Part shown: piece by piece, positions 21,184 to 52,176 of the stretch
How the letters are laid out: each line of letters opens with the position of its first letter
How positions within the stretch are numbered: position 1 is the first letter of the stretch
Assembly (NCBI GenBank): GCA_017404725.1
Contig: JAFRBS010000027.1
Location: forward strand, 349-64,348
Length of the DNA: 64,000 bases
Source of the DNA: Candidatus Saccharimonadota bacterium
Lineage (GTDB): Bacteria > Patescibacteriota > Saccharimonadia > Saccharimonadales > Saccharimonadaceae
Reading direction: 5' to 3'
Notes under the pieces: generated by a model
Databases searched by the model: none
Told to the model about the DNA's origin: nothing
The model's input: the letters and a program-made list of their open reading frames with translations, nothing else
Translations under genes and position numbers: made by a program

Positions 21184-21230
21184 GGTGCGGGCGAAGAGAC
21201 TCAAACTCTCGACCTCTTCCTTGGCAAGGG
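21184..21230. repeat. attL: displaced 3' portion of tRNA-Gly (47-bp exact direct repeat of 52130..52176)
   Basis: TGGTGCGGGCGAAGAGACTCAAACTCTCGACCTCTTCCTTGGCAAGG is identical at both sites and the flanks diverge immediately. It is also visible as the shared peptide CQGRGREFESLRPH in two artefactual ORFs. Confidence 0.9.
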
Positions 21231-21690
21231 TTTGGTCTAGAAAGAGACATTGTGAAGCTAATCGGAGTGTTTAAGCGACTGTCTAAACACTCGGACGGCT
21301 TCGCAATCGTGCTCTCAACGAAAATTCGATGATTAACAATTTGATAATTCTGCGACCAACAAACGAGCGGTTGCCGGAGCCAGGGAGTCAGCAATCATAA
21401 TTTTAGGACTCAACCGTGCGCCTCCGGCAGCCCGATTATTAACTAATTTCGTCCGCAGAGCTCCGAGCGCTAATGGCACCTTGACTGGCAATTTAATTTT
21501 CGAAGTGCAAAAATTTAGAACGTTATATGACCTTATAACTTTTTTGTGATTCAAGACTACAAAACTTGGTGTAATGATTTATTCATTACCCTCCTAATTA
21601 TTCAACGTGCGAACCCTTTTTATCGCACAAACGCCTAAATTCATTAGATTAGTGCACGGAGCCCTGCGGGCGACTAAAGGAGCAAAAATT

Positions 21691-21855
21691 ATGAAGGCAA
21701 TTTTTAAGAAAATAGCAGGATTTTTGGTGGTTCCTGCAATAACTTTGATTTTTTGTAAAGCCAACACTGGATTAGGCGTGCTAATCCAATTCGTAAGCGC
21801 AATATATGCGGTGTCATACATCTGCGTGAGATATAAAGGAGTAGAAAATGAGTAG
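21691..21855 (+). CDS. Small phage membrane protein (2 TM)
   Basis: AAAGGAG RBS, then ATG 21691 (MKAIFKKIAGFLVVPAITLIF...). Confidence 0.5.
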   Translation: MKAIFKKIAGFLVVPAITLIFCKANTGLGVLIQFVSAIYAVSYICVRYKGVENE

Positions 21856-21968
21856 GATTGGTCAAGAAGTTTTAAGACTTGAAGAAGAGGGGATGCTTAA
21901 ATACGATGAGCATCGAAGCATCTATGTCCGGATGCTAGAAAGTAAGGCGCAGAAGGTGGAGGTTAGAT

Positions 21969-22538
21969 ATGGCAGACGCTAAAGTGATTAAGAATGCCAG
22001 CCAAGGGTACGGGTACAAGTACTCCAGTTTGGCAGATCTAGCAGAAGCGGGGGTGGATATTCCAAAAATGAGAGTCAAGCCGACCGAGTTTGGCGAATTC
22101 ATCGAATATCTAGACAAAGATGGAAACTGGCAAACTGGAGCCAAAATCGTAGAATTTGAGGCCAAAGGAATGAACCGAGCGCAAATGTATGGTTCGGCCC
22201 TAACCTACGCCAGACGTTACACCGTCCAGATGGCCGAGCAAGTGGCCTGCGACGACGACAAGGGCGTTGAATCATCCAAGCCAGCAAACGGCGCTCAGAA
22301 GCGCTCTGGTGGCTTCTCAAGCGGTCCTACGGAAAAGCAACTAGGTTTCCTAGCGAAACTTTACCGCGAGGGCGGCATGAGCGAAGAAGATATTAAGAAA
22401 TACACGGATGTTGCGAAGACCAAAACCGCTATAGAAGTCGGCCAGACGATTAAGAATGCTAAGGCTAGGCTAGAACAAAAAAAGGCGGCTCAAGATGAGG
22501 TTCCAACAGAAGAAGAAGTGGAGGGGTTTGATGGATAA
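21969..22538 (+). CDS. ERF-family single-strand annealing recombinase
   Basis: GYKYSSLADL and MYGSALTYARRY resemble the conserved ERF motifs. Confidence 0.7.
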   Translation: MADAKVIKNASQGYGYKYSSLADLAEAGVDIPKMRVKPTEFGEFIEYLDKDGNWQTGAKIVEFEAKGMNRAQMYGSALTYARRYTVQMAEQVACDDDKGVESSKPANGAQKRSGGFSSGPTEKQLGFLAKLYREGGMSEEDIKKYTDVAKTKTAIEVGQTIKNAKARLEQKKAAQDEVPTEEEVEGFDG

Positions 22539-22806
22539 GCCAACGATAGCCCAAATTTCATTCTTCAAGCAAAATTGGTTTAGAATGACACGCTGCGAAG
22601 TCTTAGATGAAGAACTTTCTAAGCTCAAAACTAAATCAGATTTTTCCAGGGCCATTTCGAAGCTAAACGAAATTCGGCAAAGATGGCAAGCGGAACTTCG
22701 GGCAAAAATGAATGAGGCACAAGAAGATGCGCGAATTGGAATCGCAATGCGCGGTGCCAGAAGAGTGTTAACTGAAGACGAGAAAAAGGAGGTTTTAGGT
22801 CAATGA
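22531..22806 (+). CDS. Phage hypothetical protein
   Basis: Start at MDKPTIAQISFF behind GGAGGGG. Overlaps the ERF stop. Confidence 0.5.
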   Translation: MDKPTIAQISFFKQNWFRMTRCEVLDEELSKLKTKSDFSRAISKLNEIRQRWQAELRAKMNEAQEDARIGIAMRGARRVLTEDEKKEVLGQ

Positions 22807-23081
22807 GCAGTTTCAGAGACCGGTTCGGTGGGCTTACTGTTGAGCAAGTCCGGGAACTGAACGCGGCCGCACGTTGGATGTGCGACCATGAAATAACGGC
22901 GGCAGAATAGGAGTTAGTGGTGTGGCGAAGAGGCGCTACTAAGAAGGGCACCCAAGAATGCTGCTGCCACTAACTCCTAAAGTCGCCGGCGGTGGTAATT
23001 TGCCATCGCCAAGACGGGTCCGGCTCTGTTGAGGGCGGCCGGACCCACCAATAACAATTTAGGTGCATATAAGGAGTTAAA

Positions 23082-23432
23082 ATGAGCAGTTATGACAGAG
23101 TCGGGACAAAAGAGTTCCGCGAAATAAAAGATTATCTTAAGAAACACGGAGACGACTACCCGGGGGCGATGAAAAGATACAAGCGGTCTTTTACGACCGT
23201 TCGCAGAATCGACCTCAGCCCGGACTGGTGGGAATATCGAAGTCACAAGGGGCTGCGAGCGCTAGGCAACGAGCCAAGCAAAGCGCCATCTCGGAGACGA
23301 ATCCCATTTGAGGCAATTTCAAACAAGAAACTAGAACGGCAAATTCGGATGCTTATGATCGGCGGAATAGTCAAGGACGTCATCATCGTAGCACTGATTG
23401 GGCTGGGAATAGCTAAACTAATTGGAGGTTAA
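23082..23432 (+). CDS. Phage hypothetical protein with a C-terminal TM anchor
   Basis: AAGGAG RBS. The C-terminus is MLMIGGIVKDVIIVALIGLGIAKLIGG. Confidence 0.55.
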   Translation: MSSYDRVGTKEFREIKDYLKKHGDDYPGAMKRYKRSFTTVRRIDLSPDWWEYRSHKGLRALGNEPSKAPSRRRIPFEAISNKKLERQIRMLMIGGIVKDVIIVALIGLGIAKLIGG

Positions 23433-23433
23433 A

Positions 23434-23670
23434 ATGTTTAGAAGAAAGCAAGATTTCGTGCCGGATGCCGAGTGGCGGTTTCAAACCGTCCTAGACATCG
23501 TTAAAGACTTTGACAAGGCTAATTTTAAGAAATTCATGGGGGCAATTGAGCTGGCTTGGTCCGGCTACGACAAAGCACTGCGCGCTCCAACTCGGAGTGA
23601 AAAGGAAACCGGAGATATTGACGAAGCAGAAATAGGGCTTCTTGAAACTGAGAAAGGAGTTAGGAAATGA
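23434..23670 (+). CDS. Phage hypothetical protein
   Basis: GGAGG RBS, then ATG 23434 (MFRRKQDFVPDAEW...). Confidence 0.5.
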   Translation: MFRRKQDFVPDAEWRFQTVLDIVKDFDKANFKKFMGAIELAWSGYDKALRAPTRSEKETGDIDEAEIGLLETEKGVRK

Positions 23671-23828
23671 ACCCAAGACCAGCTTTTAGAATAGCACTAA
23701 CTTTGGCGGTGGTAGCGTTTATCGCTGCGATGATTTTAGCGTGGATGGAAGCACCAGGGCCAATGGCTCTGGTGACTGCAACGATGTTGATTAACTATTG
23801 GCTAAGCGAAATTAGGAAAGGATTGTGA
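23667..23828 (+). CDS. Small phage membrane protein (53 aa, below ORF-track cutoff)
   Basis: My translation is MNPRPAFRIALTLAVVAFIAAMILAWMEAPGPMALVTATMLINYWLSEIRKGL. Start and stop overlap the neighbouring genes. Confidence 0.4.
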   Translation: MNPRPAFRIALTLAVVAFIAAMILAWMEAPGPMALVTATMLINYWLSEIRKGL

Positions 23829-24214
23829 TGAGCGGAACGACTGAAGGCGGTAAGAAGGCCGCAAAAACCACTACCGCTATTAAAAGGTTGCCAAGCCAAA
23901 GCAAAAATGCAGACGACGAACAAACTGAAATTCGCGGAGATTTTAACAAAAAGTCAAAAAAAGGCATGGACGTAGAGGAACTTACACGACAGAATAGGAG
24001 TATGCCGTATCTGTTAAACATTTCGCAAGTCTGTAGCCTACTCAATATTGGCAGGTCTACACTATATGTTCTGGTAGAGAGGCAAGAACTCCCAGCGGTC
24101 AAAGTTCTGGGGCGCACCTTATTTAGACCAAACGAGATTGAAAATTTTATTAACAATTTACCACAATTTGAAGGAGGAAAAAATGAGTTTCACGGAGAAT
24201 CTGCTCACTTATGA
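23828..24214 (+). CDS. Excisionase-family helix-turn-helix DNA-binding protein
   Basis: LLNISQVCSLLNIGRSTLYVLVERQELPAVKVLGRTLFRPNEIENFI matches the MerR/Xis-type HTH pattern. The N-terminus is basic. Confidence 0.6.
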   Translation: MSGTTEGGKKAAKTTTAIKRLPSQSKNADDEQTEIRGDFNKKSKKGMDVEELTRQNRSMPYLLNISQVCSLLNIGRSTLYVLVERQELPAVKVLGRTLFRPNEIENFINNLPQFEGGKNEFHGESAHL

Positions 24215-24297
24215 TGAGCAGAGGAAGCGCAAAATTGACAAGGCGATTGACCAGCGCGATTTTGAAGAATTAACCAAATTAACGATAGGAGGATAGT

Positions 24298-24780
24298 ATG
24301 GCATTAACTAAAAAAGACGAAGAAAGAATTAGAGAAATAATCCGAGAGTGCGGAGCGGATATGACTGCCGTGGTACCAAAGATAAAGACTCAGACTTGGG
24401 AGCCGGGGCTGACATTATTGGTGATGGTGGACGGCGAGGAACACGAGGTCGCTATGAACCCATACTTTGAGTATGACGAGGACGGAGACAAGAAAACCGA
24501 GTTCACTTGGGACGAGGCAATGGAGGCCCAAAGCAAAATGCCGGACGGCTGGAGACTTCCGACTCGGCATGAACTTGTCGAGATTATTGAGCAGCGAGGG
24601 CAGGATGCAGATGGCGATATTAACAGCAGGTTATCCTCCGCTACCGGCTGGTCTGGCTACTACTGGTCGTCTACCGAGTACAATAGCAACGACGCCTACA
24701 CCCTGTTCGTCAATAGCTCCGGCGCCAACGTCTACGACTACTACAAGACGAATTCGTACTACGTAGTGTGCTACCGGTAG
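24298..24780 (+). CDS. DUF1566 (C-type-lectin-like) domain protein, no signal peptide
   Basis: GWRLPTRHELVEI and GWSGYYWSSTEYNSNDAYTLFVNSSG...YYVVCYR. The C-terminal 50 aa align with the host protein 14487..15596. Confidence 0.7.
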   Translation: MALTKKDEERIREIIRECGADMTAVVPKIKTQTWEPGLTLLVMVDGEEHEVAMNPYFEYDEDGDKKTEFTWDEAMEAQSKMPDGWRLPTRHELVEIIEQRGQDADGDINSRLSSATGWSGYYWSSTEYNSNDAYTLFVNSSGANVYDYYKTNSYYVVCYR

Positions 24781-24918
24781 TCTACCTTATTTAGGTTTGT
24801 GTCTCGCGCGAACCCTAAAGATGGGACACCAGAGAGGACAACCCGAAGGACCACAAAGTAAAGAAATCAGGCGCGTAGCGCAAAAAGGAGCAAGATGAGA
24901 TTAAAGATGAGGAGGAAA

Positions 24919-25362
24919 ATGAAATTAAGAAATAAGAAAACTGGGGATATACTCCAAATGGACGGCTTAATCCTGCCAGAACCGAGCCAGACGAATTATA
25001 ATTCTCTCGCCGAACTTACCGAGGAATGGGAAGATTACGAAGAACCGAAAGAGAACAAATTTTATTGGATTGATTATGATGGCGAAATCGTAAAGGATGG
25101 GACTACTCCATTCGATAATGACACTGAGGCAATGAAAGCTATTGGCAACTGGTTTGAAACCGAAGAAGAAGCAGAGCGAGCAGTTGAGAAATTAAAGGCT
25201 TGGAAAAGGCTAAAAGATAAAGGATTTAGGTTTCTCGGTTGCGATTGTGATGATAATTCTATCGCAATAGATTCGACCATAGGAGATATGAGAGAAGAAG
25301 ACTGTGCTGTTAATGCGCTAATAGCGCGAGATCTAAATTTGCTTTTCGGAGGTAGAGAATGA
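24919..25362 (+). CDS. Phage hypothetical acidic protein
   Basis: AGGAGGA RBS, then ATG 24919. Confidence 0.5.
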   Translation: MKLRNKKTGDILQMDGLILPEPSQTNYNSLAELTEEWEDYEEPKENKFYWIDYDGEIVKDGTTPFDNDTEAMKAIGNWFETEEEAERAVEKLKAWKRLKDKGFRFLGCDCDDNSIAIDSTIGDMREEDCAVNALIARDLNLLFGGRE

Positions 25363-25769
25363 AAGAGATGACAGAATCAGAATTACAAACCAAGGTCGCA
25401 GATTATATCAGATTGCAATACCCTAAAGTGCTATTTCACTCCGACTATGGCTCCGGAGTAAAACTCACGGCTCGCCAAGCGGCGATTCAGAAGCGTCAAA
25501 ATGGCGGATTGAAGGGCTGGCCTGATATGTTCATCGCCGAGCCGTTCAAAGAGTGGCACGGTCTATTTATCGAGCTGAAAAAGGATGGAACAAGGCTAAA
25601 AAAAAAAGATGGAACTTGGGCTTCAGGCCATATAGCAGAACAGGCGAAGATGATGGCAGAACTTGAAAAACGAGGCTATCTTGCCAAATTCGCCGTCGGC
25701 TTTGACGAGGCGAAGAGAATTATTGACGAATATCTTGATGGTCCGCAACCGGAAAGGGTGGAGTTCTGA
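25359..25769 (+). CDS. VRR-NUC domain nuclease
   Basis: GWPDMFI...GLFIELKK fits the PD-(D/E)xK VRR-NUC signature. Confidence 0.7.
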   Translation: MKEMTESELQTKVADYIRLQYPKVLFHSDYGSGVKLTARQAAIQKRQNGGLKGWPDMFIAEPFKEWHGLFIELKKDGTRLKKKDGTWASGHIAEQAKMMAELEKRGYLAKFAVGFDEAKRIIDEYLDGPQPERVEF

Positions 25770-25848
25770 AAAGACCCCTGATTGGGGTCTTGAGGTAGTT
25801 GGGAGATGTCGTATATAAATAATATCACAACGGAGGTAAAAAGTCAAG

Positions 25849-26151
25849 ATGGGCAAGTTTAAAGCGGAGGGGACAATCGTTCGCAGGCTAGATCGAATTA
25901 CGATCATATTTTGGAGCAAAGAGTCGATCTATGTTTATGAGAACGGCGCGGATGCTGGAGTGATCTTCAATAGATGGTTCACGCAGCGGCGGTCATATGA
26001 GTATTGGCGGGACTTCCGCAGAAAGATGTTACGATACAAAAATTTATCCGTAGTGCAGTGTTGCGAAATCGCGGCTACGTACGATATTAGTGTAGTCAGC
26101 ACCCGTAGGAAATTATCATTGAGTGGAAGGAAAATAATATATCGTGAGTAG
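25849..26151 (+). CDS. Phage hypothetical protein
   Basis: GGAGG RBS. Promoter-motif copy 1 lies in its 3' end. Confidence 0.4.
   Translation: MGKFKAEGTIVRRLDRITIIFWSKESIYVYENGADAGVIFNRWFTQRRSYEYWRDFRRKMLRYKNLSVVQCCEIAATYDISVVSTRRKLSLSGRKIIYRE
26098..26119 (+). promoter_or_regulatory. Phage promoter-like motif copy 1 (AGCACCCGTAGGAAATTATCAT)
   Basis: One of five same-strand copies. Lies upstream of the ParB-methylase gene. Confidence 0.5.
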
Positions 26152-26243
26152 AAAATGCGATTGTCCAAGAAGAACGCTGGCCGAGATTATACGAGGCGTA
26201 GTCTGGAAGCGTAAATTTAAGAAAGCGATAAGAATGGAGGAAA

Positions 26244-27489
26244 ATGGGGAGCATTAAAGACTTAAAGTTCGACAATAAGAACTTCAATAAGCATACTGAG
26301 TTTGGTATGTCACTCTTGGAAAAGAGCCTGCGCGAGAATGGTGCCGGTAGATCTATCCTCCTAGACAGAGACAATAACATTATCGCCGGTAATGGAGTAG
26401 TAGAAGCCGCCGGACAGATTGGCCTGGATAAGGTCAAGATTGTCGAAGCCAAAGGTGACGAGATTATCGCCGTAAAGCGCACTGACATCAGCTTGAACTC
26501 TAAAAAGGGCCGCGAGATGGCGCTGGCCGATAATGCTACGGCAAAGGCGGATATCGAGTGGGATGAAGAAGCGCTTCGGGACGAGTTCGATGATGATGAA
26601 CTCAAGAATTGGGGAGTAGAGTTAAAGCCCTATAAAGAAATTGAGGAAGATGAGCCAGCTCCTGTCGACCAAGATAATACCTATTCCGTAGTGGGGGATA
26701 TTTATCAGCTTGGAGATCACCGCATATTCTGTGGCTCTTTCGAAGATGATGAGAAAGTTATGGAACTGTTCGGAGACAAGAAGGCCACTTGCACATTTAC
26801 AGACCCGCCGTACAACGTTGCCTACAAGTCTGCCGATGGCAAGTCTATCAAAAATGATTCAATGGCTAGGGAAGAATTTATGGATTTTCTTAGTAGGGCA
26901 TTCGATACCGTATCTAAAAATACGGTACCGGGGGGGTGTGATTAGTTGGATGAGTGATAGAGAACTATTTACCCTATGGGGCGCGTTTAAAGTATCCGGG
27001 TTACAGTTTAGGCAACTTATCGTGTGGGTAAAAGACAGATTCACTTTAGGTCACGCAGATTTTCAATATGCTACTGAACCAGCAATATATGGTGTTTCTG
27101 AAGGAAAATATGATAAGGACAGCGTAGATGACGAAGGTGATGGTCAGGTAGCTCTATATGCTAGAGGTAATGGCAAATTTCAGAATAACCGCAAATTCTC
27201 GAATACTTGGTTCTTTGAGAAGCCATTGTCCAGCAAAGACCATCCCACGATGAAGCCTGTTGGTCTATGCGCAAAAGGCGTATTGGCTATGTCGGAAGTT
27301 GGTGATATAGTTTTTGACCCGTTCTCTGGTTCAGGCTCCACTCTTATTGCTTGCGAACAGACCGGGCGCAAGTGCTATGGGTGCGAGATTGACCCCAAAT
27401 ACTGCGATGTAATACGTAAACGCTATTGGAAGTTCAAGACCGGTAGCGAGGAAGGATGGCAAGATGGAACGAAAGCAATCTCCGCTTAA
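26244..27489 (+). pseudogene. ParB-like nuclease domain fused to an N6/N4 DNA methyltransferase, split by a frameshift at a G7 tract
   Basis: ORF 26244..26945 holds the ParB-N pattern and DPPY. ORF 26710..27489 holds FDPFSGSGST. The frames join at GGGGGGG (26930-26936): ...NTVPGG / VISWMSDRE... Confidence 0.8.
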
Positions 27490-27853
27490 AAATGGCAATC
27501 CCAAACATGATTTAACCGTGGATGAAGCGAGGAAAGGCGGGAAGGCAAGTGGAAACGCTCGCCGTCAGCGCAAGACTCTCGCTCAAATCGGCGATATGAT
27601 TGGCGGACTAGATATCAAATCAGATAAGAACCGGGAAATCTTGCGCAAGGCTGGTATTACTGATGAGGATATGATTAATGACGTTGGGATGATGTTTAGA
27701 CTGAATCTCAAGGCTCAGAGTGGCGATACGCGCGCCATAGAGCTGTTGTCGAAGCTGCGCGGTCAGTTCAAAGAGCAGATTAGCACTGAGGTGTCTGAGG
27801 TCAAGCCGTTGGTGGATCTAACGAAAAGGAGTAAAAATGGCGAAACAAACTAA
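27464..27853 (+). CDS. terS: Putative terminase small subunit
   Basis: LTVDEARKGGKASGNARRQRK is an N-terminal motif common in small terminases. The gene lies upstream of terL. Confidence 0.5.
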   Translation: MERKQSPLKNGNPKHDLTVDEARKGGKASGNARRQRKTLAQIGDMIGGLDIKSDKNREILRKAGITDEDMINDVGMMFRLNLKAQSGDTRAIELLSKLRGQFKEQISTEVSEVKPLVDLTKRSKNGETN

Positions 27854-27977
27854 GCTGGTAATGACTGGTGGGCTTATTGACTGCCCAAAATGTCGCAGTA
27901 TTGTTCACGAACTGCTGGATGATGACGGCGTCCGATACTGCGGACATTGCCACGCAAGGGTGTCGTATGATAATTGA
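27837..27977 (+). CDS. Zinc-ribbon protein (46 aa, below ORF-track cutoff)
   Basis: AAAGGAG RBS. My translation is MAKQTKLVMTGGLIDCPKCRSIVHELLDDDGVRYCGHCHARVSYDN (CxxC...CxxC). Confidence 0.45.
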   Translation: MAKQTKLVMTGGLIDCPKCRSIVHELLDDDGVRYCGHCHARVSYDN

Positions 27978-28599
27978 CCACAATCACCCCGCTTATCGTG
28001 CGCGATGGAATAATGCCGGCGCTGGCAAGTTTAATGGGGCGTTCTTTTACTCAAAAGAAATCGTCAAAAATATCATCCCGAACGTTCGGACGGACCGGAA
28101 TTGGGTCACAATTAATATCCCAGGTTTCGCTCCGGATCACTCCATCGTTTTTATCCATAATAACAAACATCCATGGAACTACAACTGGCTGGAAAACTAT
28201 GAAGATTTGATTCTCGTTTGTGGGGTACCAGAAACGTGCGAGAAGGTGGCTCATCTCGGCAAGACGATATATTTGCCGCTGTCAGTGGATGTAGAGGATG
28301 TCGCAAAATATCGATGCGAGAAAACTAAAGAGATTGCATTCGCTGGACGCCTTGATAAGGCACGCGGGTTATCTGGCGTTGATATGATCGGCGGATTGCC
28401 GCGGACTAAACTTTTGCCTGAGATGGCGAAGTATCGTAAGATTTACGCCGTCGGCAGAACCGCTATCGAGGCAAAGATTTTAAACTGCGAGGTTTTGCCT
28501 TACGACCAACGATTCCCTGATCCGAAACTCTGGCGGATCGTGGATAATTCAGAGGCGGCTAAAATACTCCAGAGGGAATTGGATAGAATAGATGGCTAG
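27967..28599 (+). CDS. Phage hypothetical protein
   Basis: Start moved to MIIDHNHPAYRARW (in frame with ORF 27868). Sits between terS and terL. I recognise no domain. Confidence 0.5.
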   Translation: MIIDHNHPAYRARWNNAGAGKFNGAFFYSKEIVKNIIPNVRTDRNWVTINIPGFAPDHSIVFIHNNKHPWNYNWLENYEDLILVCGVPETCEKVAHLGKTIYLPLSVDVEDVAKYRCEKTKEIAFAGRLDKARGLSGVDMIGGLPRTKLLPEMAKYRKIYAVGRTAIEAKILNCEVLPYDQRFPDPKLWRIVDNSEAAKILQRELDRIDG

Positions 28600-29755
28600 A
28601 ACAACGGCGCTGAATAAGATTGAAGCGGCAGTGTGCGAGCCGACCTTCTACAAGGTGATTCAGGGTGGTATGAGTGCTGGCAAGACTTTTGCCACCTTGA
28701 CGATTCTCGTCGGCTATTGCGAATCCTACCCTGATTCCCTAGTCACGGTGCTGGGCTTATCTTATCCGCACCTGTCAACCGGCGCCATAAGGGACTTCCA
28801 GCGCGTGATGAAAGAAACAAACCGCTGGGATGATTCCAGATGGTCTTCAACAACCCACATCTATCAGTTCCCAAACGGTTCTACACTTGAGTTCGTTTCA
28901 GTCGACAAAATGTCGGCTCGTGGTCCACGCCGTGATGTTCTATTCGTGAATGAGGCCAATGGCATCAGCTTCGAAGTATTCGACCAACTCGCAAGCCGTT
29001 CTCGCGATTTCGTTATTATCGACTACAACCCATCGGCTAAGTTTTGGGCTCATGAGGAGCTTGTGGAGCGGCAGAAAGACCAGACAACGTTCCTAGTGCT
29101 AACCTACAACGACAACGAGGCTCTGGGAGCGCGTGAGAGGGCTAATATCGAATCTCGCCGGCCAAAAAAAGGCGAAGAACCGTCAAACTGGTGGACAGTG
29201 TATGGTCTAGGCCAAATTGGAACGCTGGAAGGCAACGTCTATTCTGGCTGGGAAGAATCCACTGCCGAGGAAATCTCGGCAACTGGGAAACTGGTTCGCT
29301 ATGGACTGGACTTCGGGTTCTCGAACGACGAAACAGCCCTAGTGGCGATATATGAGATGGAAGACGGCAAACTTGGAGTCGTGGAAAAGTTGTATCGAAA
29401 AGGACTTTTGGGCTCAGAGTACCCGCTTATATTCCAAGAGATTGGCATTGACCAAAATGTGCTAATCGTGGCGGACTCGGCTCGGCCAGAAATTATCGCT
29501 GAAATTAAGGAAGCGGGTTTTAGAATCATCGGAGCTGATAAGAACCCAGGGTCAGTACTACGAGGGATCGATCGAGTTAGCCAGCGCCAGATTGTTTATT
29601 CAGGAAAAAATCTGAAGCGTGAGTACCTAAGCTACCCTTGGCGGACCAAACGTTCCGGGGAGGTGCTAGACGAGCCTCAGGACGGAAACGACCACCTTTT
29701 GGATGCTCTGCGATACGCTGTCGATGATTTGTCCAAAAAGCGGTTTGACTTTTAA
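28592..29755 (+). CDS. terL: Terminase large subunit (PBSX-like)
   Basis: Walker A GGMSAGKT, Walker B LFVNEA, and a C-terminal nuclease region with DHLLDALRY. Confidence 0.85.
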   Translation: MARTTALNKIEAAVCEPTFYKVIQGGMSAGKTFATLTILVGYCESYPDSLVTVLGLSYPHLSTGAIRDFQRVMKETNRWDDSRWSSTTHIYQFPNGSTLEFVSVDKMSARGPRRDVLFVNEANGISFEVFDQLASRSRDFVIIDYNPSAKFWAHEELVERQKDQTTFLVLTYNDNEALGARERANIESRRPKKGEEPSNWWTVYGLGQIGTLEGNVYSGWEESTAEEISATGKLVRYGLDFGFSNDETALVAIYEMEDGKLGVVEKLYRKGLLGSEYPLIFQEIGIDQNVLIVADSARPEIIAEIKEAGFRIIGADKNPGSVLRGIDRVSQRQIVYSGKNLKREYLSYPWRTKRSGEVLDEPQDGNDHLLDALRYAVDDLSKKRFDF

Positions 29756-29812
29756 AAAACCGAACAAAACCGGGCAAAAAGCCGCATTTTCGGCACATTT
29801 GTTCGGTTTTTT
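29754..29812 (+). terminator. Large hairpin terminator after terL
   Basis: 15-bp stem AAAAAACCGAACAAA / TTTGTTCGGTTTTTT with an inner GCCG/CGGC hairpin. Confidence 0.6.
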
Positions 29813-29855
29813 AGTCTATAAGTGGGTGCGTTAGGCACCTTTTTTTGTTGTTGCA

Positions 29856-29877
29856 AGCACCCGTACGAAATTATCAT
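29856..29877 (+). promoter_or_regulatory. Phage promoter-like motif copy 2 (AGCACCCGTACGAAATTATCAT)
   Basis: Its TATCAT ends 6 nt before the capsid-gene ATG at 29884, which implies a leaderless mRNA. Preceded by TTGTTGTTGCA, as in copy 4. Confidence 0.55.
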
Positions 29878-29883
29878 GTCGGT

Positions 29884-45435: not shown

Positions 45436-45735
45436 ATGGCTAAAAAATATGTAATCACCACTAAAGAAGAAGACAGGATTATTGCCTTCGCAAAACAATT
45501 ATCAACTTTAGACAATGGCTATTGGCACTCGGTTTTAGCGGACACCGCTTACCCGAACACAACCTGCTATGCCTACGACGCGGATGGTCAGATCGCAGAA
45601 GTAGATGGTAGCAAGCCGGCAAAAATTGGCGAACCTATCGAGATTCCAGCCGAAGTTAAAATCGAACAGTACTGCTACACGACCGAAGACGGCTTCTACC
45701 CTAATCCGGATTATGTCGCGTCGGCTGAAGACTAA
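45436..45735 (+). CDS. Phage hypothetical protein
   Basis: AAAGGAG RBS, 99 aa. Confidence 0.5.
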   Translation: MAKKYVITTKEEDRIIAFAKQLSTLDNGYWHSVLADTAYPNTTCYAYDADGQIAEVDGSKPAKIGEPIEIPAEVKIEQYCYTTEDGFYPNPDYVASAED

Positions 45736-45757
45736 AGCACCCGTAGGAAATTAAAAT
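45736..45757 (+). promoter_or_regulatory. Phage promoter-like motif copy 5 (AGCACCCGTAGGAAATTAAAAT)
   Basis: Lies 22 nt upstream of the endolysin ATG. Confidence 0.5.
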
Positions 45758-45779: not shown

Positions 45780-46775
45780 ATGGATAAAAAACAGGTGGCA
45801 AAAGTTAAAATTGACAAGGTAACAGGAATTCTCGCGGCGGTCGGGATGATTCTAGTCGGAATCTTGGTCGGACTGGCCGGAGGCAAAATCACAGCGGTCT
45901 TCAATCCAGTTGAAAAAGAAGTAGAAATCTATGCCGAAACAGAAGGCTCCATCACTTTATCTGAAGAACAGCCAGAAGCAATTGTGGAAAATGAGAATGG
46001 CGAGCTTGAAACTGAGCAACTTCCGGTAGTCGAAGAGGTTTCCGGCAATGAATTCCCTGTTGAAGAAGAAGTTGACTTTGGTCAAGGTGCTTACTACGAC
46101 TTTTCTACGCCGGCAACGTTCAAGAATGCTACTCTTGGAAACTGCATAGATATGGACGGCAAATATGGGGCGCAGTGCGTAGATCTAGCAGCGGTTTTTC
46201 ACAAAGAATACACCGGACGCTGGCTCTCGACCTGCGGAACCGGTGCGGCTCGTGGAATCTGGGCGTGCCGTGGTGAAAATGCTGGCGAAGAATACGAACT
46301 TATCACGGATGTTACTAAAGTTCAGGCTGGTGACTGGTTAATCTTTGATGGCGGCAAATATGGCCATGTCGGAATGGCTATGGGCCCATACAACAACGGC
46401 TATGTCGCGCTTCTCGGCGAGAATCAGGGTGGTGCTAAATGTACTGGCGGCGGCGCGGCTGCTAACATCATCAATATGTCCACTAAGACCTTCCTAGGCG
46501 CCTTCAGACCGAAAATCTATATCGCTCCAGAACCAGAGCCTACACCAGCACCGGCGCCGGTGGCTGATAAATGTCAATCTTGGGACCTCAAAAAGGGCGA
46601 CACACTCGGTAAAATAATGAAAGAGTGCGAGGGTAGAATCGTCTGGGGGTCCACCATGGATGAATACGCGAAGACTTGGGCCGATAAGGAAACCGGTCAG
46701 GTTGTCTATGATGGCTGGTACAAATCGGAAAACGGTGTTGGTCTTTATGCTGGACACGAACTCACGAGGAAATAA
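45780..46775 (+). CDS. Endolysin: N-terminal signal-anchor, CHAP peptidase domain, C-terminal LysM-like module
   Basis: TM segment ILAAVGMILVGILVGLAGG. CHAP catalytic elements GAQCVDLA and KYGHVGMAM. The C-terminus has WDLKKGDTLGKIMKE. Confidence 0.75.
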   Translation: MDKKQVAKVKIDKVTGILAAVGMILVGILVGLAGGKITAVFNPVEKEVEIYAETEGSITLSEEQPEAIVENENGELETEQLPVVEEVSGNEFPVEEEVDFGQGAYYDFSTPATFKNATLGNCIDMDGKYGAQCVDLAAVFHKEYTGRWLSTCGTGAARGIWACRGENAGEEYELITDVTKVQAGDWLIFDGGKYGHVGMAMGPYNNGYVALLGENQGGAKCTGGGAAANIINMSTKTFLGAFRPKIYIAPEPEPTPAPAPVADKCQSWDLKKGDTLGKIMKECEGRIVWGSTMDEYAKTWADKETGQVVYDGWYKSENGVGLYAGHELTRK

Positions 46776-46777
46776 TA

Positions 46778-47149
46778 ATGGCTTGCCCAAACCAAAACAA
46801 CATCACGATGACGCGCGGAGATACTACGAAATGGTACTTCCAGCGCAAAGACAACGACGGAAATGTAATTACGACGCGCCCGAGCAAACTCTATTTCACG
46901 GTAAAATCGGACCCACGAAACTTGACCCCTGTATTCCAGATTCAGTTTCCGGAGATGACGCTTGACGAAGATGGGACAATCCACTTCACGATTCTGCCGT
47001 CTATGACAAACGGTCTGGACTGGCGGAAGCAATACTACTACGATATAGAGGTCATTGACGCTGGCGTTAAGACCACTATTTCATACGGCCGATTCACACT
47101 AAAACCAGAGGTTACTTGGGCGCAAAATGAGGAGGGAGAATCCGAATAA
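46778..47149 (+). CDS. Small Ig-like tail/baseplate protein (BppU-N-like)
   Basis: ITMTRGDTTKWYF...YYYDIEV pattern. Position next to the fibre gene. Confidence 0.35.
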   Translation: MACPNQNNITMTRGDTTKWYFQRKDNDGNVITTRPSKLYFTVKSDPRNLTPVFQIQFPEMTLDEDGTIHFTILPSMTNGLDWRKQYYYDIEVIDAGVKTTISYGRFTLKPEVTWAQNEEGESE

Positions 47150-48756
47150 TGGCCGCAGAAGAAACAAACATTCCGGTAATTCAAGAGGAGACTGAGCAGA
47201 CCGTTCCAATTCAGCAAGAGGCTATCAATATCACGAAACTAGATGGCGCGGTCAATTCTGTTAATGGGATGGAAGGTGATGTCGTCTTGACTGCGGCGGA
47301 TGTCGGAGCTTTGCCTGACGATACTTTTATTCCAACAACGACCTCGGAGCTTGAAAATGACGCCGGATTTATTACCGACGCAGATGTTCCGAGCCGAACC
47401 TCGCAGCTCGTGAACGATAGTGGCTTTATCACTAGTGCGGCAGTTCCGACCAAAGTTTCTCAGCTCACAAACGACTCAGGCTACGCTACAACCAGTTCAG
47501 TTGAGAGTTTGGTCGAGTCGGAAGAAACGGCACGTCAGAACGCCGACACGGAGCTCCAGACGGCAATTTCTAATGAAACTTCCGCCAGACAAACAGCCGT
47601 GTCAAACGAGGCAGAGGCTCGCGAAGACGCTGATAATACTCTGCACCAAGAAATCGTGACCGAGGCCAATACTAGATCTACCAACGACACCAGAATTGAA
47701 GATGCGCTTCAGGAGGAAGCTGAGACTCGCGGAATTGAAGATGCGACGATTTTAGCGGAAATTGAAAACGAGGCAGAGGCTCGCGAAGACGCTGACCAAG
47801 CCATCAGCGCTAAACTTGACGCCACAACCTATATGCAAGATTTGACCATGAGCGCCGACGCTAACTCAGTTAGCTTCGTAGAGCATAAAAAGAACCTTGG
47901 AACCGGAGAAACTTCTACCGAAACTGATACTATTCCGGCCGCTTCGGCTACTTCAGCCGGTATTTTAACTTCCGCCGCCTACCAGTCCATCCAGAACTCG
48001 CAGGACCGCTTAGACGCGCTGGCAAACGGCGCGGTTGCGATTACTGGGCTTCCGGCTGAACCGACGCAGGCGCAACTGACTGCCGCGTGGAAAACTGCGA
48101 CCGGGTTGACTGACTTAATCAACCGTGCGAGCATATGGGACAACACTAATCAGAAAACTTGGACTTATTTTGAAAATACCGAATCTTGGATTGTGACCGG
48201 AACCGCAACGGCTGAGGTCGTCGTCAATACGGCGACAAACAGCTCGCTTGGGGTCGTTAAGGGCGATGCTTCGACTTCTGGCAAGGTTTTTGTGGAACAG
48301 GACGGCTCAATGTCGGTCAACGGCTGGGATGATGCCCAGAGCGCCATTGCAAATAAAGCCAACCAGAGCGCACTAGACACGCTCAGCGGAACGGTGGCGA
48401 CCAATACTAGCAACATTTCTTCGCTTCAGTCCGCTATGGCTGATAAGGCAGACGCTTCGGCTATTCCTACGGCTACTTCCGAGCTGAATAACGATAGCGA
48501 TTTCGTTTCGGACGCTAACTACGTCCACACCGACAATAACTACACAACAGCCGAGAAAAACAAGTTGGCCGCAATGCCGGCGATTACTGGCGTGATTGAC
48601 AACTTGACTTCAACTTCCGCGACAAATCCGCTTTCAGCGAACCAAGGCAAGATTCTGAATGACAAGTTCGCTAGCTATTCTACGACGGCTCAGATGAATG
48701 CGGCAATTCAGTCGGCGATTGACAATATCACTGATTATGACGAGGAGAGCTTCTAA
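47149..48756 (+). CDS. Tail fibre protein with SxLxNDxGF/Y repeats and a coiled coil
   Basis: TSELENDAGFIT, TSQLVNDSGFIT, VSQLTNDSGYAT and TSELNNDSDFVS. A duplicated AACGAGGCAGAGGCTCGCGAAGACGCTGA occurs at about 47606 and 47768. Confidence 0.75.
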   Translation: MAAEETNIPVIQEETEQTVPIQQEAINITKLDGAVNSVNGMEGDVVLTAADVGALPDDTFIPTTTSELENDAGFITDADVPSRTSQLVNDSGFITSAAVPTKVSQLTNDSGYATTSSVESLVESEETARQNADTELQTAISNETSARQTAVSNEAEAREDADNTLHQEIVTEANTRSTNDTRIEDALQEEAETRGIEDATILAEIENEAEAREDADQAISAKLDATTYMQDLTMSADANSVSFVEHKKNLGTGETSTETDTIPAASATSAGILTSAAYQSIQNSQDRLDALANGAVAITGLPAEPTQAQLTAAWKTATGLTDLINRASIWDNTNQKTWTYFENTESWIVTGTATAEVVVNTATNSSLGVVKGDASTSGKVFVEQDGSMSVNGWDDAQSAIANKANQSALDTLSGTVATNTSNISSLQSAMADKADASAIPTATSELNNDSDFVSDANYVHTDNNYTTAEKNKLAAMPAITGVIDNLTSTSATNPLSANQGKILNDKFASYSTTAQMNAAIQSAIDNITDYDEESF

Positions 48757-49970
48757 TGGCAAAAGGGCTCGTATCAGATACCAACCTAACAGCCATCGCT
48801 AACGCTATTCGGGCCAAAAATGGCGAATCAGACGCTTATACTCCGGCTGAGATGGCGCAAGCGATTTCTGATATTCCGACTTCGCAGGTGGACCAAGAAT
48901 CCGCGCTAAAATATATGCTCGAAAATAAGACGGATTACACCGGAATCGCTGCTGGATTGACTACTCTGACGGAGTTACCAGAGTTCACCCAGCCAAGTGG
49001 GGTTAAAAATTTTTACGGCGCATTCTCGAACTGCCGTAGTCTGCAAAGAATAGAACATTTAGATGTTTCGTCTTCAAATTCTTCATTTCAGAATATGTTT
49101 TACTACTGCCAGAATCTAACTTATGTGCCCGACCTTGACACGGTTGGTTCTGGTTCTAGATCGGCAGAGAGCATGTTTTACTACTGCCAAAGCTTGGCTA
49201 ATTTACCCGCATTGAAATGGACTACATTTAACTCATGTCGCAACATGCTTTGTCGAGTGCCAATAATTAGTTTTGACGAAACGATTTCGGTTTCTGGAAC
49301 GTATAGTGGTATCGAGAATTTTGCGTCGATGTTCTCGGGTTGCACTAGTTTAAATTCTGTGACTCTGCGTGGGCGTGGTTTTAAGCCAACGGTTAATTTT
49401 GCGTCGATGTTCTCGGGTTGTACTAGTTTAACTTCTGTAGAATTTTTGCAACACCCCAGTGTATCGGCTTCAGCTTCCATAATTAAACCGACAACTAGTA
49501 CTAACTGCGCAAGTATGTTCTATAATTGCTCATCGCTGTCTAATATTTCCAGCAGTGTCACAGATATTGTTTTAGTCGCTGGGGTCCCAACAGTAACCAC
49601 TTCGATGTTCTCGGGTTGTACTAGTTTAACTAGCATAGCTCTCGGGTCTAATATGAATTCAGCTACTAACTGCGCAGGGATGTTTAAGGGTTGTGCAAAG
49701 CTAGTCGATGTGGCACAGATGAACTTATCAGCCGTTAGTAGCGATGAATATAGCACCGCGGGGTATGGCACTAGTGGTATGTTTCAAAACTGTCCAGCTC
49801 TATCCAGTGATGCGCTCAATAATATTCTTGCTTCCCTAACGACAGCGTCCAAAATTACGACAAATAAGACTCTCAAATACATTGGTCTCACATCCGCTCA
49901 AGCTACGACCTGCACTGGCTTGTCAAACTGGGCGGCACTATCAGCGGCAGGGTGGACAACGGGGTACTAA
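48756..49970 (+). CDS. BspA-type leucine-rich-repeat protein (DUF285-like), probable receptor-binding protein
   Basis: Repeats FASMFSGCTSLNSV, FASMFSGCTSLTSV, CASMFYNCSSLSNI, TSMFSGCTSLTSI, CAGMFKGCAKLVDV and SGMFQNCPALSS. Confidence 0.7.
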   Translation: MAKGLVSDTNLTAIANAIRAKNGESDAYTPAEMAQAISDIPTSQVDQESALKYMLENKTDYTGIAAGLTTLTELPEFTQPSGVKNFYGAFSNCRSLQRIEHLDVSSSNSSFQNMFYYCQNLTYVPDLDTVGSGSRSAESMFYYCQSLANLPALKWTTFNSCRNMLCRVPIISFDETISVSGTYSGIENFASMFSGCTSLNSVTLRGRGFKPTVNFASMFSGCTSLTSVEFLQHPSVSASASIIKPTTSTNCASMFYNCSSLSNISSSVTDIVLVAGVPTVTTSMFSGCTSLTSIALGSNMNSATNCAGMFKGCAKLVDVAQMNLSAVSSDEYSTAGYGTSGMFQNCPALSSDALNNILASLTTASKITTNKTLKYIGLTSAQATTCTGLSNWAALSAAGWTTGY

Positions 49971-49971
49971 G

Positions 49972-50271
49972 ATGAGCGATGCAGTAATTGTCGGAATTAT
50001 CAGCGTGGTCGGGTCAATCGTGGTCCAGCTTATCGTTTCGGCGTCCAAGACACGTGAGACAAACGCCACGCTGGCCACACATGAACAGAAACAGCAGGAT
50101 GCTATTGAAGACGTCAAGAAAGAGATGGTGGAAGTCAAGAAACGGCTAGATTCGCATAATGGCTACGCCGAGAAATTTGCCGACGCTAAGAAAGATATTG
50201 CCTTGACGCAAAGAGACGTGGAGTTCATCAAAGAGCAGCTTAAAAATATGCAGATGTGCAAAACTAAATAA
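49972..50271 (+). CDS. N-terminally anchored coiled-coil protein (holin/lysis-associated candidate)
   Basis: Start MSDAVIVGIISVVGSIVVQLIVSA (TM segment), followed by a charged coiled coil. Confidence 0.4.
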   Translation: MSDAVIVGIISVVGSIVVQLIVSASKTRETNATLATHEQKQQDAIEDVKKEMVEVKKRLDSHNGYAEKFADAKKDIALTQRDVEFIKEQLKNMQMCKTK

Positions 50272-50334: not shown

Positions 50335-50553
50335 ATGCTGGAACTAAGAGCTAAAATCATCGAAAAGGATGACGCGCGCCGGAATGAACTATTAAAAAGC
50401 CTTGGGCGGCATAGCGGAGTTGAGGTGGTTGTCGTAGATGACCAGATCCAAATTAGCCTGACCGGTGGCGCTAACGAAACTCGCGAATTTGCTGACTTGA
50501 TGCGGGTTTGCGAGATGTGCGAGTGCCATATGTTCCAACTCAGAAAGAGGTAG
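50335..50553 (+). CDS. Phage hypothetical protein
   Basis: AAGGGGG RBS, 72 aa, followed by the hairpin AGGTAGGC-TTCG-GCCTGCCT. Confidence 0.45.
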   Translation: MLELRAKIIEKDDARRNELLKSLGRHSGVEVVVVDDQIQISLTGGANETREFADLMRVCEMCECHMFQLRKR

Positions 50554-50580
50554 GCTTCGGCCTGCCTCTAATTTTACCTA

Positions 50581-50609
50581 TTGACTTTTTTGGAAAAGTG
50601 CGATACAAT
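50581..50609 (+). promoter_or_regulatory. Sigma70-type promoter TTGACT-17-TACAAT
   Basis: TTGACT at 50581-50586 and TACAAT at 50604-50609. Followed by a leader of about 190 nt before ATG 50800. Confidence 0.55.
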
Positions 50610-50799
50610 AGAGGTAGTTTAGATAGTCACTTAAACACTCCGCCGGAGAGATTTGGTGGGGTGTTTTAATCCCCACCGTAAACCGGATAATTTAGGTAAT
50701 ATGAGCCAGCTTTTCCGCGCTCTGGAAATGTTGACTCACTAACCGCCAAGAACCTGAAGAGCGGAGGTAATTTTGACGGCTAAATAAAGGAGGTAATTT

Positions 50800-51108
50800 A
50801 TGGGGATGGAAAGAATCCAATCAATGACATCAATGAGAATCAATGAAATTTTTCTTAAGAAAAATTCAATGAAGTCAATGATAGCCAATGAGAAAAAATC
50901 TGCTAGAGCAAGGTCAACAGAGATGACCGCCGACCGACTTGTGGAAATCTTTAACGCACCGCAGAGTCGAAACTTCTTCTTAAAATGTGCTTGGCACTTG
51001 AGTGAAGACCAAATCTGGACGGCTGTGGAAAACTCTCAAAGGAAGAAAATCAAGAGTCCAGTCAAATATTTCGTAGCCTGTTGCTCTAAAGAGCTAGCCA
51101 AGATTTAG
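50800..51108 (+). CDS. Phage hypothetical protein next to the integrase (regulator candidate)
   Basis: AAGGAGG RBS. The C-terminal KKIKSPVKYFVACCSKEL resembles the ends of DnaD/replisome-organiser-type DNA-binding domains; this is a weak match. Confidence 0.4.
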   Translation: MGMERIQSMTSMRINEIFLKKNSMKSMIANEKKSARARSTEMTADRLVEIFNAPQSRNFFLKCAWHLSEDQIWTAVENSQRKKIKSPVKYFVACCSKELAKI

Positions 51109-51158
51109 GATGATGCCCTTCCCGCCTTTATTAAATTAAAGGGTGGGGAGGAGTAAAA

Positions 51159-52025
51159 ATGAAAATCAGCGAGGCGTTTGCGGAATATCGTGAATCGGAA
51201 ATCATCGCGGCCAATTTATCAAGTAAGACTTTAGAGTCTTACTTTTATTCTGAAAAAAGAGCTATTGAATACTTCGGTGATGTCGGAATAGAAACTCTAA
51301 CGGCACCGGACGTCCGAAGCTATTATGAGCACTTATTAACATGGCAGAAACCCGATACGGCTCGTGGAAATATCGTTTGTCTTCGCGCCGTCGTGAAATT
51401 ATGCCGCCGAAACAATCTTGATGTTTTAGATCCGGAGCTGATTAAAGTTCCGAAACGCGAAAAGCGTATTATAAACTATCTAACAGAGCAGGAAGTTCAA
51501 AGATTTGTCGAGGTAGTCGGCGCACCACAACGTGGATATTCCCTACTAAACCGTCAGCGCAATGTCTTAATCGTGAAACTTTTGTACTCAACCGGACTTC
51601 GCGTAGGTGAGTTATGCCGGCTGAATCGGAACTCGTTTCGCAACCGTCAAGCGGCGATTTATGGGAAATCTAAACTACCGCGTCCGGTCTATATTCCCAA
51701 AGATGTGGAAAACTTGATTGAGCAATATCTAAAAAATCGTGATGACTCGGAGCCAGCGCTGTTGATTTCCGAGCATACTGGTAAAAGAATCACGCCTGGA
51801 ACAGTCCGTTTAGTATTCCGAAACGCTTGCGCAAGGTCTGAATTTGAAAACATCCATCCGCATACCCTCCGACATTCTTTCGCCACAAAAATGTTAGATA
51901 AGGAAGTTGACCTGCGCTATATCGCTGATTTGATGGGCCACGAGAGCCTAGACACAACCAGAATTTATACCCATTATACAAATCCAAAACTGAGGTCAAT
52001 ATACGATAGGGTGTGGAAAACTTAA
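51159..52025 (+). CDS. int: Tyrosine recombinase/integrase (XerC/D-like, 288 aa)
   Basis: Catalytic residues in TGLRVGEL, HTLRHSFAT, GHESLDTT and IYTHY. Adjacent to attR. Confidence 0.9.
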   Translation: MKISEAFAEYRESEIIAANLSSKTLESYFYSEKRAIEYFGDVGIETLTAPDVRSYYEHLLTWQKPDTARGNIVCLRAVVKLCRRNNLDVLDPELIKVPKREKRIINYLTEQEVQRFVEVVGAPQRGYSLLNRQRNVLIVKLLYSTGLRVGELCRLNRNSFRNRQAAIYGKSKLPRPVYIPKDVENLIEQYLKNRDDSEPALLISEHTGKRITPGTVRLVFRNACARSEFENIHPHTLRHSFATKMLDKEVDLRYIADLMGHESLDTTRIYTHYTNPKLRSIYDRVWKT

Positions 52026-52048
52026 CAAAAAATTAAGCGTAAAAAGTA

Positions 52049-52077
52049 TTGACTTTTTTGCGCTTATGGTGTATAGT
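52049..52077 (+). promoter_or_regulatory. Strong outward-facing promoter TTGACT-17-TATAGT between int and attR
   Basis: TTGACT at 52049-52054 and TATAGT at 52072-52077. Points across the att core, antisense to tRNA-Gly. Confidence 0.5.
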
Positions 52078-52129
52078 TTAGCTAGAATAGCACGTTGAAA
52101 TACCAACTAGCAACCAACTTAAATTGTCT

Positions 52130-52176
52130 TGGTGCGGGCGAAGAGACTCAAACTCTCGACCTCTTCCTTGGCAAGG
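52130..52176. repeat. attR core (47 bp, from the anticodon loop to the 3' CCA of tRNA-Gly)
   Basis: Exact copy of 21184..21230. Confidence 0.9.

Follow-up and report, generated by a model that had tools for sequence, protein, structure and literature searches.

Integrated tailed phages are already known from the Saccharibacteria (TM7). One study of oral TM7 clades described nine prophage groups and used relatives without the prophage to confirm the insertion sites (Shaiber et al. 2020, bioRxiv 10.1101/2020.04.29.069278), and a later survey catalogued 120 prophages in Saccharibacteria genomes together with 440 spacer-matched phages (Liu et al. 2023, mBio, PMC10746230). Both catalogues draw largely on oral and human-associated genomes and are not known to set out regulatory anatomy; a literature search over titles and abstract openings found no paper on the regulation of such prophages. 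Here we analyze a window of 64,000 nucleotides (nt) from a Candidatus Saccharimonadota genome (assembly GCA_017404725.1, contig JAFRBS010000027.1), in which a prophage occupies positions 21183 to 52176. We assign a probability of roughly 0.8 to the reading that this is a genuine temperate phage of the siphovirus type, about 30.9 kb long, inserted in a single-copy tRNA-Gly(GCC) gene and essentially intact in appearance. Like the elements in the two catalogues, as described there, it is an integrated tailed phage in a tiny TM7 genome with integrase, terminase, portal and tail genes, and its insertion is likewise supported by comparison with prophage-free relatives. The prophage adds to the known Saccharibacteria prophages and is not a first for the group.

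For regulation, the closest precedents come from other hosts. In mycobacteriophage BPs and its relatives, immunity depends on integration (Broussard and Hatfull 2013, PMC3694055). The present locus resembles that system in having a proposed compact switch at int and the phage attachment site (attP), in lacking lambda-type circuitry, and in a change of expression upon integration, which here is a prediction. It differs in that BPs carries attP inside its repressor gene and has a cro gene, whereas here neither repressor nor cro is recognizable, and the predicted loss is the link between a promoter and its operon, not the tail of a protein. An attachment site within a gene, as in BPs, was considered and rejected: in the computed circle, the longest open reading frames (ORFs) that cross the core measure 30–51 amino acids (aa) on the + strand and 87 aa on the − strand, and all of them read through tRNA sequence. 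Circularization-dependent expression is also a feature of the conjugative transposon Tn916, and sib retroregulation of lambda int works through an RNA-processing site. In those systems a regulatory element beside the attachment (att) site acts across that site in one form alone; here the elements in question are predicted promoters alone.

A repeat search of the window returned one exact 47-nt direct repeat, at 21183–21229 and 52130–52176, with a spacing of 30,947 nt. The original prediction was right about the exact repeat and its right copy, and its left copy, placed at 21184–21230, moves by one position when the bases are read. The 47-mer is present at these two sites alone in the 738,871-bp genome, and an exact repeat of this kind is not expected by chance. 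ARAGORN and Rfam both place an intact tRNA-Gly(GCC) on the minus strand at 52130–52206, the sole GCC glycine tRNA among the 45 tRNAs of the genome. By arithmetic from the coordinates, the right repeat copy, formed by the 3′ 47 nt of this gene, corresponds to tRNA positions 31–77, running from the last 1–2 bases of the 5′ anticodon stem, across the loop, as far as the encoded CCA. The repeat search and both tRNA calls thus agree with the earlier description of a block from anticodon loop to CCA with an intact tRNA at one junction. The left copy (21183–21229, − strand) is a displaced partial tRNA-Gly(GCC) holding the same 3′ 47 nt; it lacks the 5′ half of the tRNA, and no tRNA is called there. 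Just beyond it stands a terminator-like hairpin (21158–21173, − strand; 6 pairs, 5 of them GC, with a T-run), which is probably the original terminator of tRNA-Gly, now separated from the intact gene.

The tyrosine integrase (51159–52025, + strand) was likewise correctly placed beside the intact tRNA, with 104 nt between the end of its gene and the tRNA 3′ end. It matches Pfam Phage_integrase (PF00589) at E = 1.1e-33 and PHROG 1 at 1.4e-53, and the catalytic motifs TGLR, HTLRH, GHES and RIYTH (R, HxxR, H, Y) are seen in its translation. Directly upstream lies orf102 (50800–51108, + strand), a small protein of 102 aa from an unannotated family. On this reading, the integrase recombined a phage site carrying the anticodon-loop-to-CCA segment with the host tRNA, rebuilding the tRNA at the right junction and leaving the 47-nt fragment at the left. 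Among integrations into tRNA genes by tyrosine integrases, an anticodon-loop sublocation is said to have been recognized by Williams, writing in Nucleic Acids Res in 2002. Set beside that class, the locus has the same identity block, a rebuilt tRNA and int beside the att site, and nothing about it is unusual.

Comparison with congeners supports the insertion. A stretch of ~2.8 kb in each of G066 and G004 holds LemA, the phosphoesterase, tRNA-Gly and the right-flank gene. In the window these flanking genes stand 31 kb apart, and the 31 kb are therefore an insertion. These two genomes are distant relatives, their phosphoesterase being 43–44% identical and its gene differing in orientation. At its tRNA-Gly, a third congener, G049, has a decayed remnant as well as a prophage that is related to this one but mosaic, so this gene is a recurrent target. 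That prophage also uses this tRNA, but with the reverse orientation with respect to int. The G049 locus (G049:C22:27879–59911) is a tandem of a decayed orf102-int remnant, with an in-frame TAA in its orf102 homologue, tRNA-Gly, a full related prophage and a second partial tRNA-Gly; its att core is oriented relative to int in the direction opposite to the window's. Among relatives, the order and orientation of the phosphoesterase and the tRNA-Gly/Cys/Leu cluster vary (in the window, 19610–21103 and 52130–53479), and judged by this variation the neighborhood of the cluster is a rearrangement hot spot.

The capsid gene of the prophage finds one record in IMG/VR, IMGVR_UViG_3300028797_000077 (G001), a genome of 30,566 bp with a 127-bp terminal repeat that CheckV rates as 100% complete. 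All genes of G001 lie on one strand, and 27 + strand ORFs of the prophage match it at 24–74% identity, with near-equal lengths for the core proteins (TerL, 387 versus 388 aa; portal, 692 versus 687; lysin, 331 versus 331). A syntenic 30.6-kb genome with terminal repeats indicates that the phage type is real. The two phages have in common their size class, one-way gene orientation, the 27 shared ORFs, an orf102-int cassette with twin promoters and the layout of a late motif. They differ in that the portal module of G001 is in the canonical place between TerL and capsid, G001 has no methyltransferase, and the sequence of its late motif is another. The G001 integrase is only ~25% identical, and G001 should therefore use a different att site. 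The non-coding leader flanking the att site could not be aligned with the G001 leader (best match 17 nt, E 0.036); a search with the G001 non-coding region gave no att-like match in the window's genome or in 151 genus genomes, an empty result that carries no weight. The capsid protein yielded 60 pattern matches and 0 confirmed relatives in the genome contigs collection, 0 matches among 40 related genomes apart from the window's own, and, among GenBank phages, seven Streptococcus phages alone at 27.6% identity over 36% of the query.

Gene content was assessed with Pfam (50 queries, comprising all ORFs and 4 minus-strand ORFs) and with PHROGs (40 ORFs, E ≤ 0.01). The 41 chained ORFs all read from the + strand, in agreement with the original prediction of full co-orientation, and both GC skew and AT skew are positive over about 21–50 kb. 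A PHROG family was found for 20 of the 40 ORFs. Matches above the curated Pfam cut-offs comprise Terminase_6N/3C, Phage_portal, Phage_Mu_F, TMP_3, SPP1_Dit, HK97-gp10_like, CHAP and Phage_fiber_rpt. The genes run in the order early and recombination functions, packaging, head and tail, a displaced portal module, lysis and fibers, and finally orf102-int. The virion, packaging and lysis set includes TerL, portal, a protease-capsid fusion, connector, tape measure, Dit, fiber and CHAP lysin, and this full set rules out a satellite or an integrative and conjugative element. The functions named earlier hold for packaging, head, tail, fiber, lysis and recombination (Erf and a resolvase-like nuclease). 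Replication does not: the PHROG and Pfam scans of the ORFs recognized no replication initiator, helicase, primase or polymerase, so that this part of the claim is borne out as recombination alone.

The claim that the element has no recognizable cI-type repressor was upheld. Across the 50 Pfam queries, including the four from the minus strand, no cI or Cro protein and no HTH_3/XRE, S24 or antirepressor family was found, a search that a highly diverged protein could escape. Phage_CI_repr appeared at E 0.085 alone, within a protein whose clear match is to HTH_17. A divergent module of the lambda type is also missing, as had been suggested: the minus strand has no supported gene, and its four scanned ORFs gave no credible match. 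The only clear helix-turn-helix (HTH) protein of the element is this HTH_17 (MerR/excisionase-type, Xis-like) DNA-binding protein (23825–24214, + strand), with a Pfam HTH_17 match at 2.3e-11 (44.2 bits, cut-off 27) and a match to PHROG 66, "excisionase and transcriptional regulator", at 2.4e-9. It is a candidate recombination directionality factor and/or regulator and, of the encoded proteins, the likeliest excision factor. Taken together, lysogeny does not appear to be kept by a divergent cI/Cro module of the lambda type.

Attention falls next on the right end of the element. A strong terminator-like hairpin (50546–50569, + strand; 10 pairs, 6 of them GC) closes the late/lysis unit. Ahead of orf102-int stands P1, a sigma-70-type promoter-like site (50581–50609, + strand; TTGACT-17-TACAAT), and a second such site, P2, is located between the int stop and the att core and points outward (52049–52077, + strand; TTGACT-17-TATAGT). 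P1 and P2 have the 14-nt TATTGACTTTTTTG in common, and G001 has the same twin-promoter arrangement. A P2-type site with at least 10/12 matches and no more than 25 nt from the int stop is found at 5 of 9 loci, the background for sites of at least 10/12 being 8 in the 30,994 nt of the element's + strand; a P1-type site is found at 4 of 8 related loci. From the left att copy to the first ORF, no promoter-like or terminator-like site was flagged on the + strand. The orf102 family comprises 46 close homologues, and in the representative library it forms 315 clusters at 50% identity. Its members stand beside int without exception, as in G001, G049, G059, G102, G202 and G464. With the orf102 profile the cassette was found in 7 of 401 family genomes, the window's own included, and in IMG/VR the profile returned G001 again and nothing else. 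One protein of the representative library, P0049 (3694 aa), matches the profile in 19 stretches, which may reflect an array resembling a polyprotein, or else an artefact of repeats or low complexity.

In the scheme that we propose, the twin sigma-70-type promoters would organize transcription, P1 before orf102-int and P2 after int. Tentatively, and with the odds against it, the orf102-int cassette with its own terminator and promoter could be the lysogeny unit, orf102 acting on the paralogous P1 and P2. More doubtful is a second element of the scheme, that integration may separate P2 from the early genes, which share its orientation and in the prophage lie 31 kb off, at the opposite end; in a circular genome, they would have P2 facing them. 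The furthest-reaching version, which we consider unlikely, would make integration itself the lysogeny switch: P2 would drive the early genes solely in the circle, orf102-int would be the sole expressed unit, and orf102 would tune P1 and P2. A cI-type repressor would then not be needed, because integration would move the early genes 31 kb from P2. A rare excision would rejoin promoter and operon and so commit the cell to lysis.

Several results weigh against this scheme. None of 70 members of the orf102 family has a credible Pfam match (two stray matches have E values of 0.002–0.008), a sequence search of the PDB gave chance-level rows or none, Foldseek gave no match at E ≤ 0.001, and the best VIA-align Z score, 6.4, fell on unrelated helical proteins. 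The promoter calls are consensus matches whose number across the region is not above the shuffled expectation. At 13237–13440 in G001, a P2-type promoter has a strong terminator-like hairpin, T7 run included, ~190 nt downstream of it, and in G049 the interval from the tRNA to the early genes contains two terminator-like hairpins. Given these hairpins, P2 may make a short RNA and not the early mRNA. The G001 unit at 13237–13440 could encode a small RNA, for which there was no Rfam match; at gathering thresholds Rfam found five tRNAs in the window and G001, and nothing further. A resemblance of orf102 to DnaD is a lead, with Atlas neighbors at 0.77–0.78 and VIA-align Z scores of 4.6–4.8 (ranks 23 and 33) that lie within the noise of helical models.

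The lytic genes might instead be held off by a conventional repressor that is too diverged for the profile libraries, encoded by a small early ORF and acting through operator binding, in which case the co-orientation of the genes would be incidental. This explanation overlaps with the one preferred here and differs from it merely in the protein doing the job. One candidate is a 116-aa ORF (23082–23432, + strand) whose N terminus may form an HTH and whose C-terminal part has a hydrophobic helix. Eight of the ten rows of its Atlas structure search are clusters of HTH families (HTH_28/HTH_Tnp_1), at template modeling (TM) scores of 0.39–0.52 and a feature score of 0.78, which are below threshold, and its structure model has a predicted local distance difference test (pLDDT) value of 0.61. 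It has no Pfam or PHROG match, its sole homologue is itself and G001 has none, so it would not be a conserved part of a switch. The other candidate is the HTH_17 protein acting as a dual repressor-excisionase of the Cox/Apl type; as a DNA-binding call it is solid. With half of the ORFs (20 of 40) outside any PHROG family, there is room for regulators that the profiles miss. Both candidates, however, lie within the early operon and not in a separately expressed unit. We regard a diverged repressor as a real possibility, with the balance somewhat against it.

The late genes, too, appear to have signals of their own. A motif of 23–37 nt, GCACCCGTAGGAAAT followed by TATCAT, occurs in five copies in the element, all on the + strand at the heads of modules, and in 0 copies elsewhere in the 739-kb genome. 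It consists of an 8-nt element, a 7-nt spacer and a −10-like hexamer. Copy 1 (26083–26119) stands before the methyltransferase and packaging genes, copy 2 (29841–29877) before the capsid gene with a terminator-like hairpin ahead of it (29824–29840), and copy 3 (39999–40035) at the left edge of the displaced portal module. Copy 4 (40400–40436) shows 97% identity with copy 2 across 37 nt, again with a terminator-like hairpin ahead of it (40381–40403), and copy 5 (45721–45757) precedes the endolysin. Ahead of the homologous modules, G001 carries another sequence built to the same plan (GTTCCGAY-N7-TAnnAT). The five copies are consistent with phage-specific late promoters that would each head a late module. 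The portal module (40061–44024, + strand) consists of two small ORFs, a portal-MuF fusion (40810–42888; PHROG 2662 at 2.1e-37, Pfam Phage_portal and Phage_Mu_F), a 54-aa ORF and a 328-aa ORF. Copies of the motif flank it, and it may have been moved by recombination between motif copies.

Public sequencing runs, kept as k=31 contigs (four runs of one study, one of them possibly the source of this DNA), bear on how intact the prophage is. A ParB-like/N6-N4 DNA methyltransferase (26244–27489, + strand; Pfam N6_N4_Mtase 3.5e-26) is split in two frames, with the frameshift read in the sequence at the G7 run 26930–26936. Positions 40–272 and 277–426 of PHROG 498 fall on its separate ORFs, and the homologue in G049 is a single intact protein of 420 aa that matches both halves. 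The portal module lies behind the tail genes, while the corresponding block of G001 (23503–27237) sits between TerL and capsid. In 4/4 runs, contigs bridge the TerL/capsid junction (29841–29877) and cover the G7 run with zero differences, which argues, within one study, that the frameshift and the portal displacement are real and not errors of this assembly. The att repeat and the late motif, through their other copies, account for the loose contig ends at 21229 and 29877. A joint from 26120 to 29841 was rejected as a deletion; it is merely the 23-nt motif common to two copies (side 23, <30).

The split methyltransferase and the displaced portal module detract from the picture of an intact phage, as do the lack of recognized replication genes and the 20 of 40 ORFs that have no PHROG family. 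The first two could be early signs of decay in a cryptic, non-inducible prophage that has become fixed in its lineage. All four runs show the identical G7 frameshift, the portal module is displaced, replication genes were not recognized, a further 1-nt deletion at 25598 affects the resolvase-like gene in one run, and the remnant that G049 carries at the same site has decayed to an in-frame stop in its orf102 homologue, all of which would fit such a history. On the other hand, all recognizable core genes are full-length open frames that match their G001 counterparts, the methyltransferase is an accessory gene, and the att repeats are still identical at 47/47 positions. Each displaced or retained module also keeps a promoter-like motif, two of them preceded by terminator-like hairpins, so the move of the portal module need not disable expression. 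Decay of this kind seems unlikely to us, and the prophage is probably functional.

The integrated arrangement itself rests on the original assembly, the recurrence in G049 and the similarity of word depth inside and outside the element (~34 versus 30, 15 versus 15, 13 versus 9 and 12 versus 9, values that are not copy numbers). Neither an excised circle nor an empty site was seen in the k=31 contigs, which break inside the 47-bp repeat. That an unoccupied tRNA-Gly site (attB) was wrongly joined through the 47-bp core to a phage present as a free circle (attP) is very improbable: the contigs of 4/4 runs do break at the repeat, and the word content of the two integrated junctions (attL and attR) is identical to that of attB and attP, but phage-side and host-side word depths are of the same order in 4/4 runs (not a copy number), the independent genome G049 has a related prophage inserted in this tRNA as well, and common assemblers use words longer than 47 nt.

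The remaining genes, all on the + strand, follow the order given above. The first early ORF (21691–21855) has AAAGGAG as its ribosome-binding site and encodes a hydrophobic protein of 54 aa that gave no Pfam match; at the equivalent position of G001, a small hydrophobic ORF looks similar by eye, with no BLAST match between them. It is followed by an Erf-type single-strand annealing protein (21969–22538; PHROG 2324/155; Pfam ERF at 33.1 bits, cut-off 25; 36% identity to G001). An Lcl_C (DUF1566)-domain protein (24298–24780; Pfam Lcl_C 1.2e-12) lies in a strain-variable stretch. In its surroundings (23906–24838) contigs break in all four runs, variants occur at 24000–24052 and 24816–24837, and loose ends at 24636–24687. 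A role of this protein as the target of a diversity-generating retroelement was rejected on three observations: no reverse transcriptase family among the scanned ORFs, no repeat pair in 24.3–24.8 kb, and variants that are not adenine-specific. The resolvase/endonuclease-like protein (25359–25769) matches PHROG 824 at 1.9e-22 and PHROG 5702, "Holliday junction resolvase", at 6.9e-12. Run X3 has the 1-nt deletion at 25598 in this gene at full depth, and the copy in that population may be frameshifted. A 100-aa ORF just upstream of the packaging genes (25849–26151) has no PHROG or Pfam family match and is 39% identical to an ORF in the same position of G001 (19266–19574); by its position, it is a candidate late-gene regulator.

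Upstream of TerL, a conserved 129-aa protein (27464–27853; PHROG 2412 at 1.1e-13, no known function; 38% to G001) is a candidate small terminase; this assignment, like those of tail tube and holin, goes by position. TerL itself (28592–29755) has ATPase and nuclease domains (PHROG 2 at 8.3e-31; Pfam Terminase_6N and Terminase_3C) and is 74% identical to the 388-aa G001 protein. The fusion of head maturation protease and major capsid protein (29845–31821; PHROG 3270 at 1.6e-19 and PHROG 7080; 71% to G001) has a Pfam L_lactis_ph-MCP match of 22.2 bits, below the cut-off of 27, and its true start is likely the in-frame ATG at 29884. Next come five to six ORFs for head-tail connector and tail (31848–34501; PHROG 5; Pfam HK97-gp10_like), 42–57% identical to G001 and in the same order, the tape measure protein (34501–37275; PHROG 1686 at 1.6e-59; Pfam TMP_3 at 2.1e-22), and a unit of Dit (37272–38183) and a conserved 409-aa tail-tip gene (37272–39391 in all; PHROG 33; Pfam SPP1_Dit; 54% to G001). 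Behind the portal module are the CHAP-domain endolysin (45780–46775; PHROG 7887/8781; Pfam CHAP; 65% to G001), a tail fiber with fiber repeats (47149–48756; Pfam Phage_fiber_rpt) and a BspA-type leucine-rich repeat (LRR)/DUF285 protein (48756–49970; Pfam LRR_5 and DUF285), the last two being candidate receptor-binding proteins. A small membrane protein (49882–50271) with a weak DUF7442 match and homologues in G001 and G049 is a candidate holin-like protein.

The chromosomal flanks identify the host. The window lies within a 71.5-kb contig of a 0.74-Mb genome of 97.9% completeness, and ordinary chromosomal genes border the prophage on both sides: LemA, M48 peptidase and metallophosphoesterase on the left, a DsbA-like protein, HisRS and Lgt on the right. 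The sole named relative of the left-flank phosphoesterase in the genome contigs collection, at 65% identity, is from "Candidatus Saccharibacteria bacterium isolate RGIG2422", where it stands beside the same tRNA-Gly/Cys/Leu cluster. This relative, together with the size and completeness of the genome, agrees with the Patescibacteria-type host that the flanking genes had suggested and places it with the Saccharibacteria. Saccharibacteria are obligate episymbionts with genomes of ~0.7 Mb. In the present genome the prophage takes up 4.2%. Within 16668–17450 of the left flank, the stretch 17137–17368 shows depth spikes, indels, joints and many loose ends in all runs. In the right flank, tRNA-Val(GAC) (56124–56200) is followed 48 nt on by an exact repeat of its last 30 nt (56250–56279) and then by a terminator-like hairpin, and from its sequence the interval 56124–56279 looks like a gene-free att-type scar or mini-insertion.

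As raw material for integration vectors and host-range work, the element keeps the value first attached to it: exact ends, the single-copy tRNA-Gly(GCC) as att site, candidate promoters of the host type and a compact integrase cassette would all be useful. The argument is weaker than originally put, as Saccharibacteria prophages had been catalogued before (Shaiber et al. 2020; Liu et al. 2023). Most worth attention is the regulatory layout that the prophage has in common with its relatives, namely a one-way genome, an unannotated family tied to int, and twin promoters that bracket the cassette. It is also noteworthy that one of the twin promoters points across the att site, and that a whole module appears to have moved between copies of the late motif. 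If the proposed switch is true, the logic by which Tn916 controls its transfer genes would be in use as a phage genetic switch in minimal-genome bacteria.

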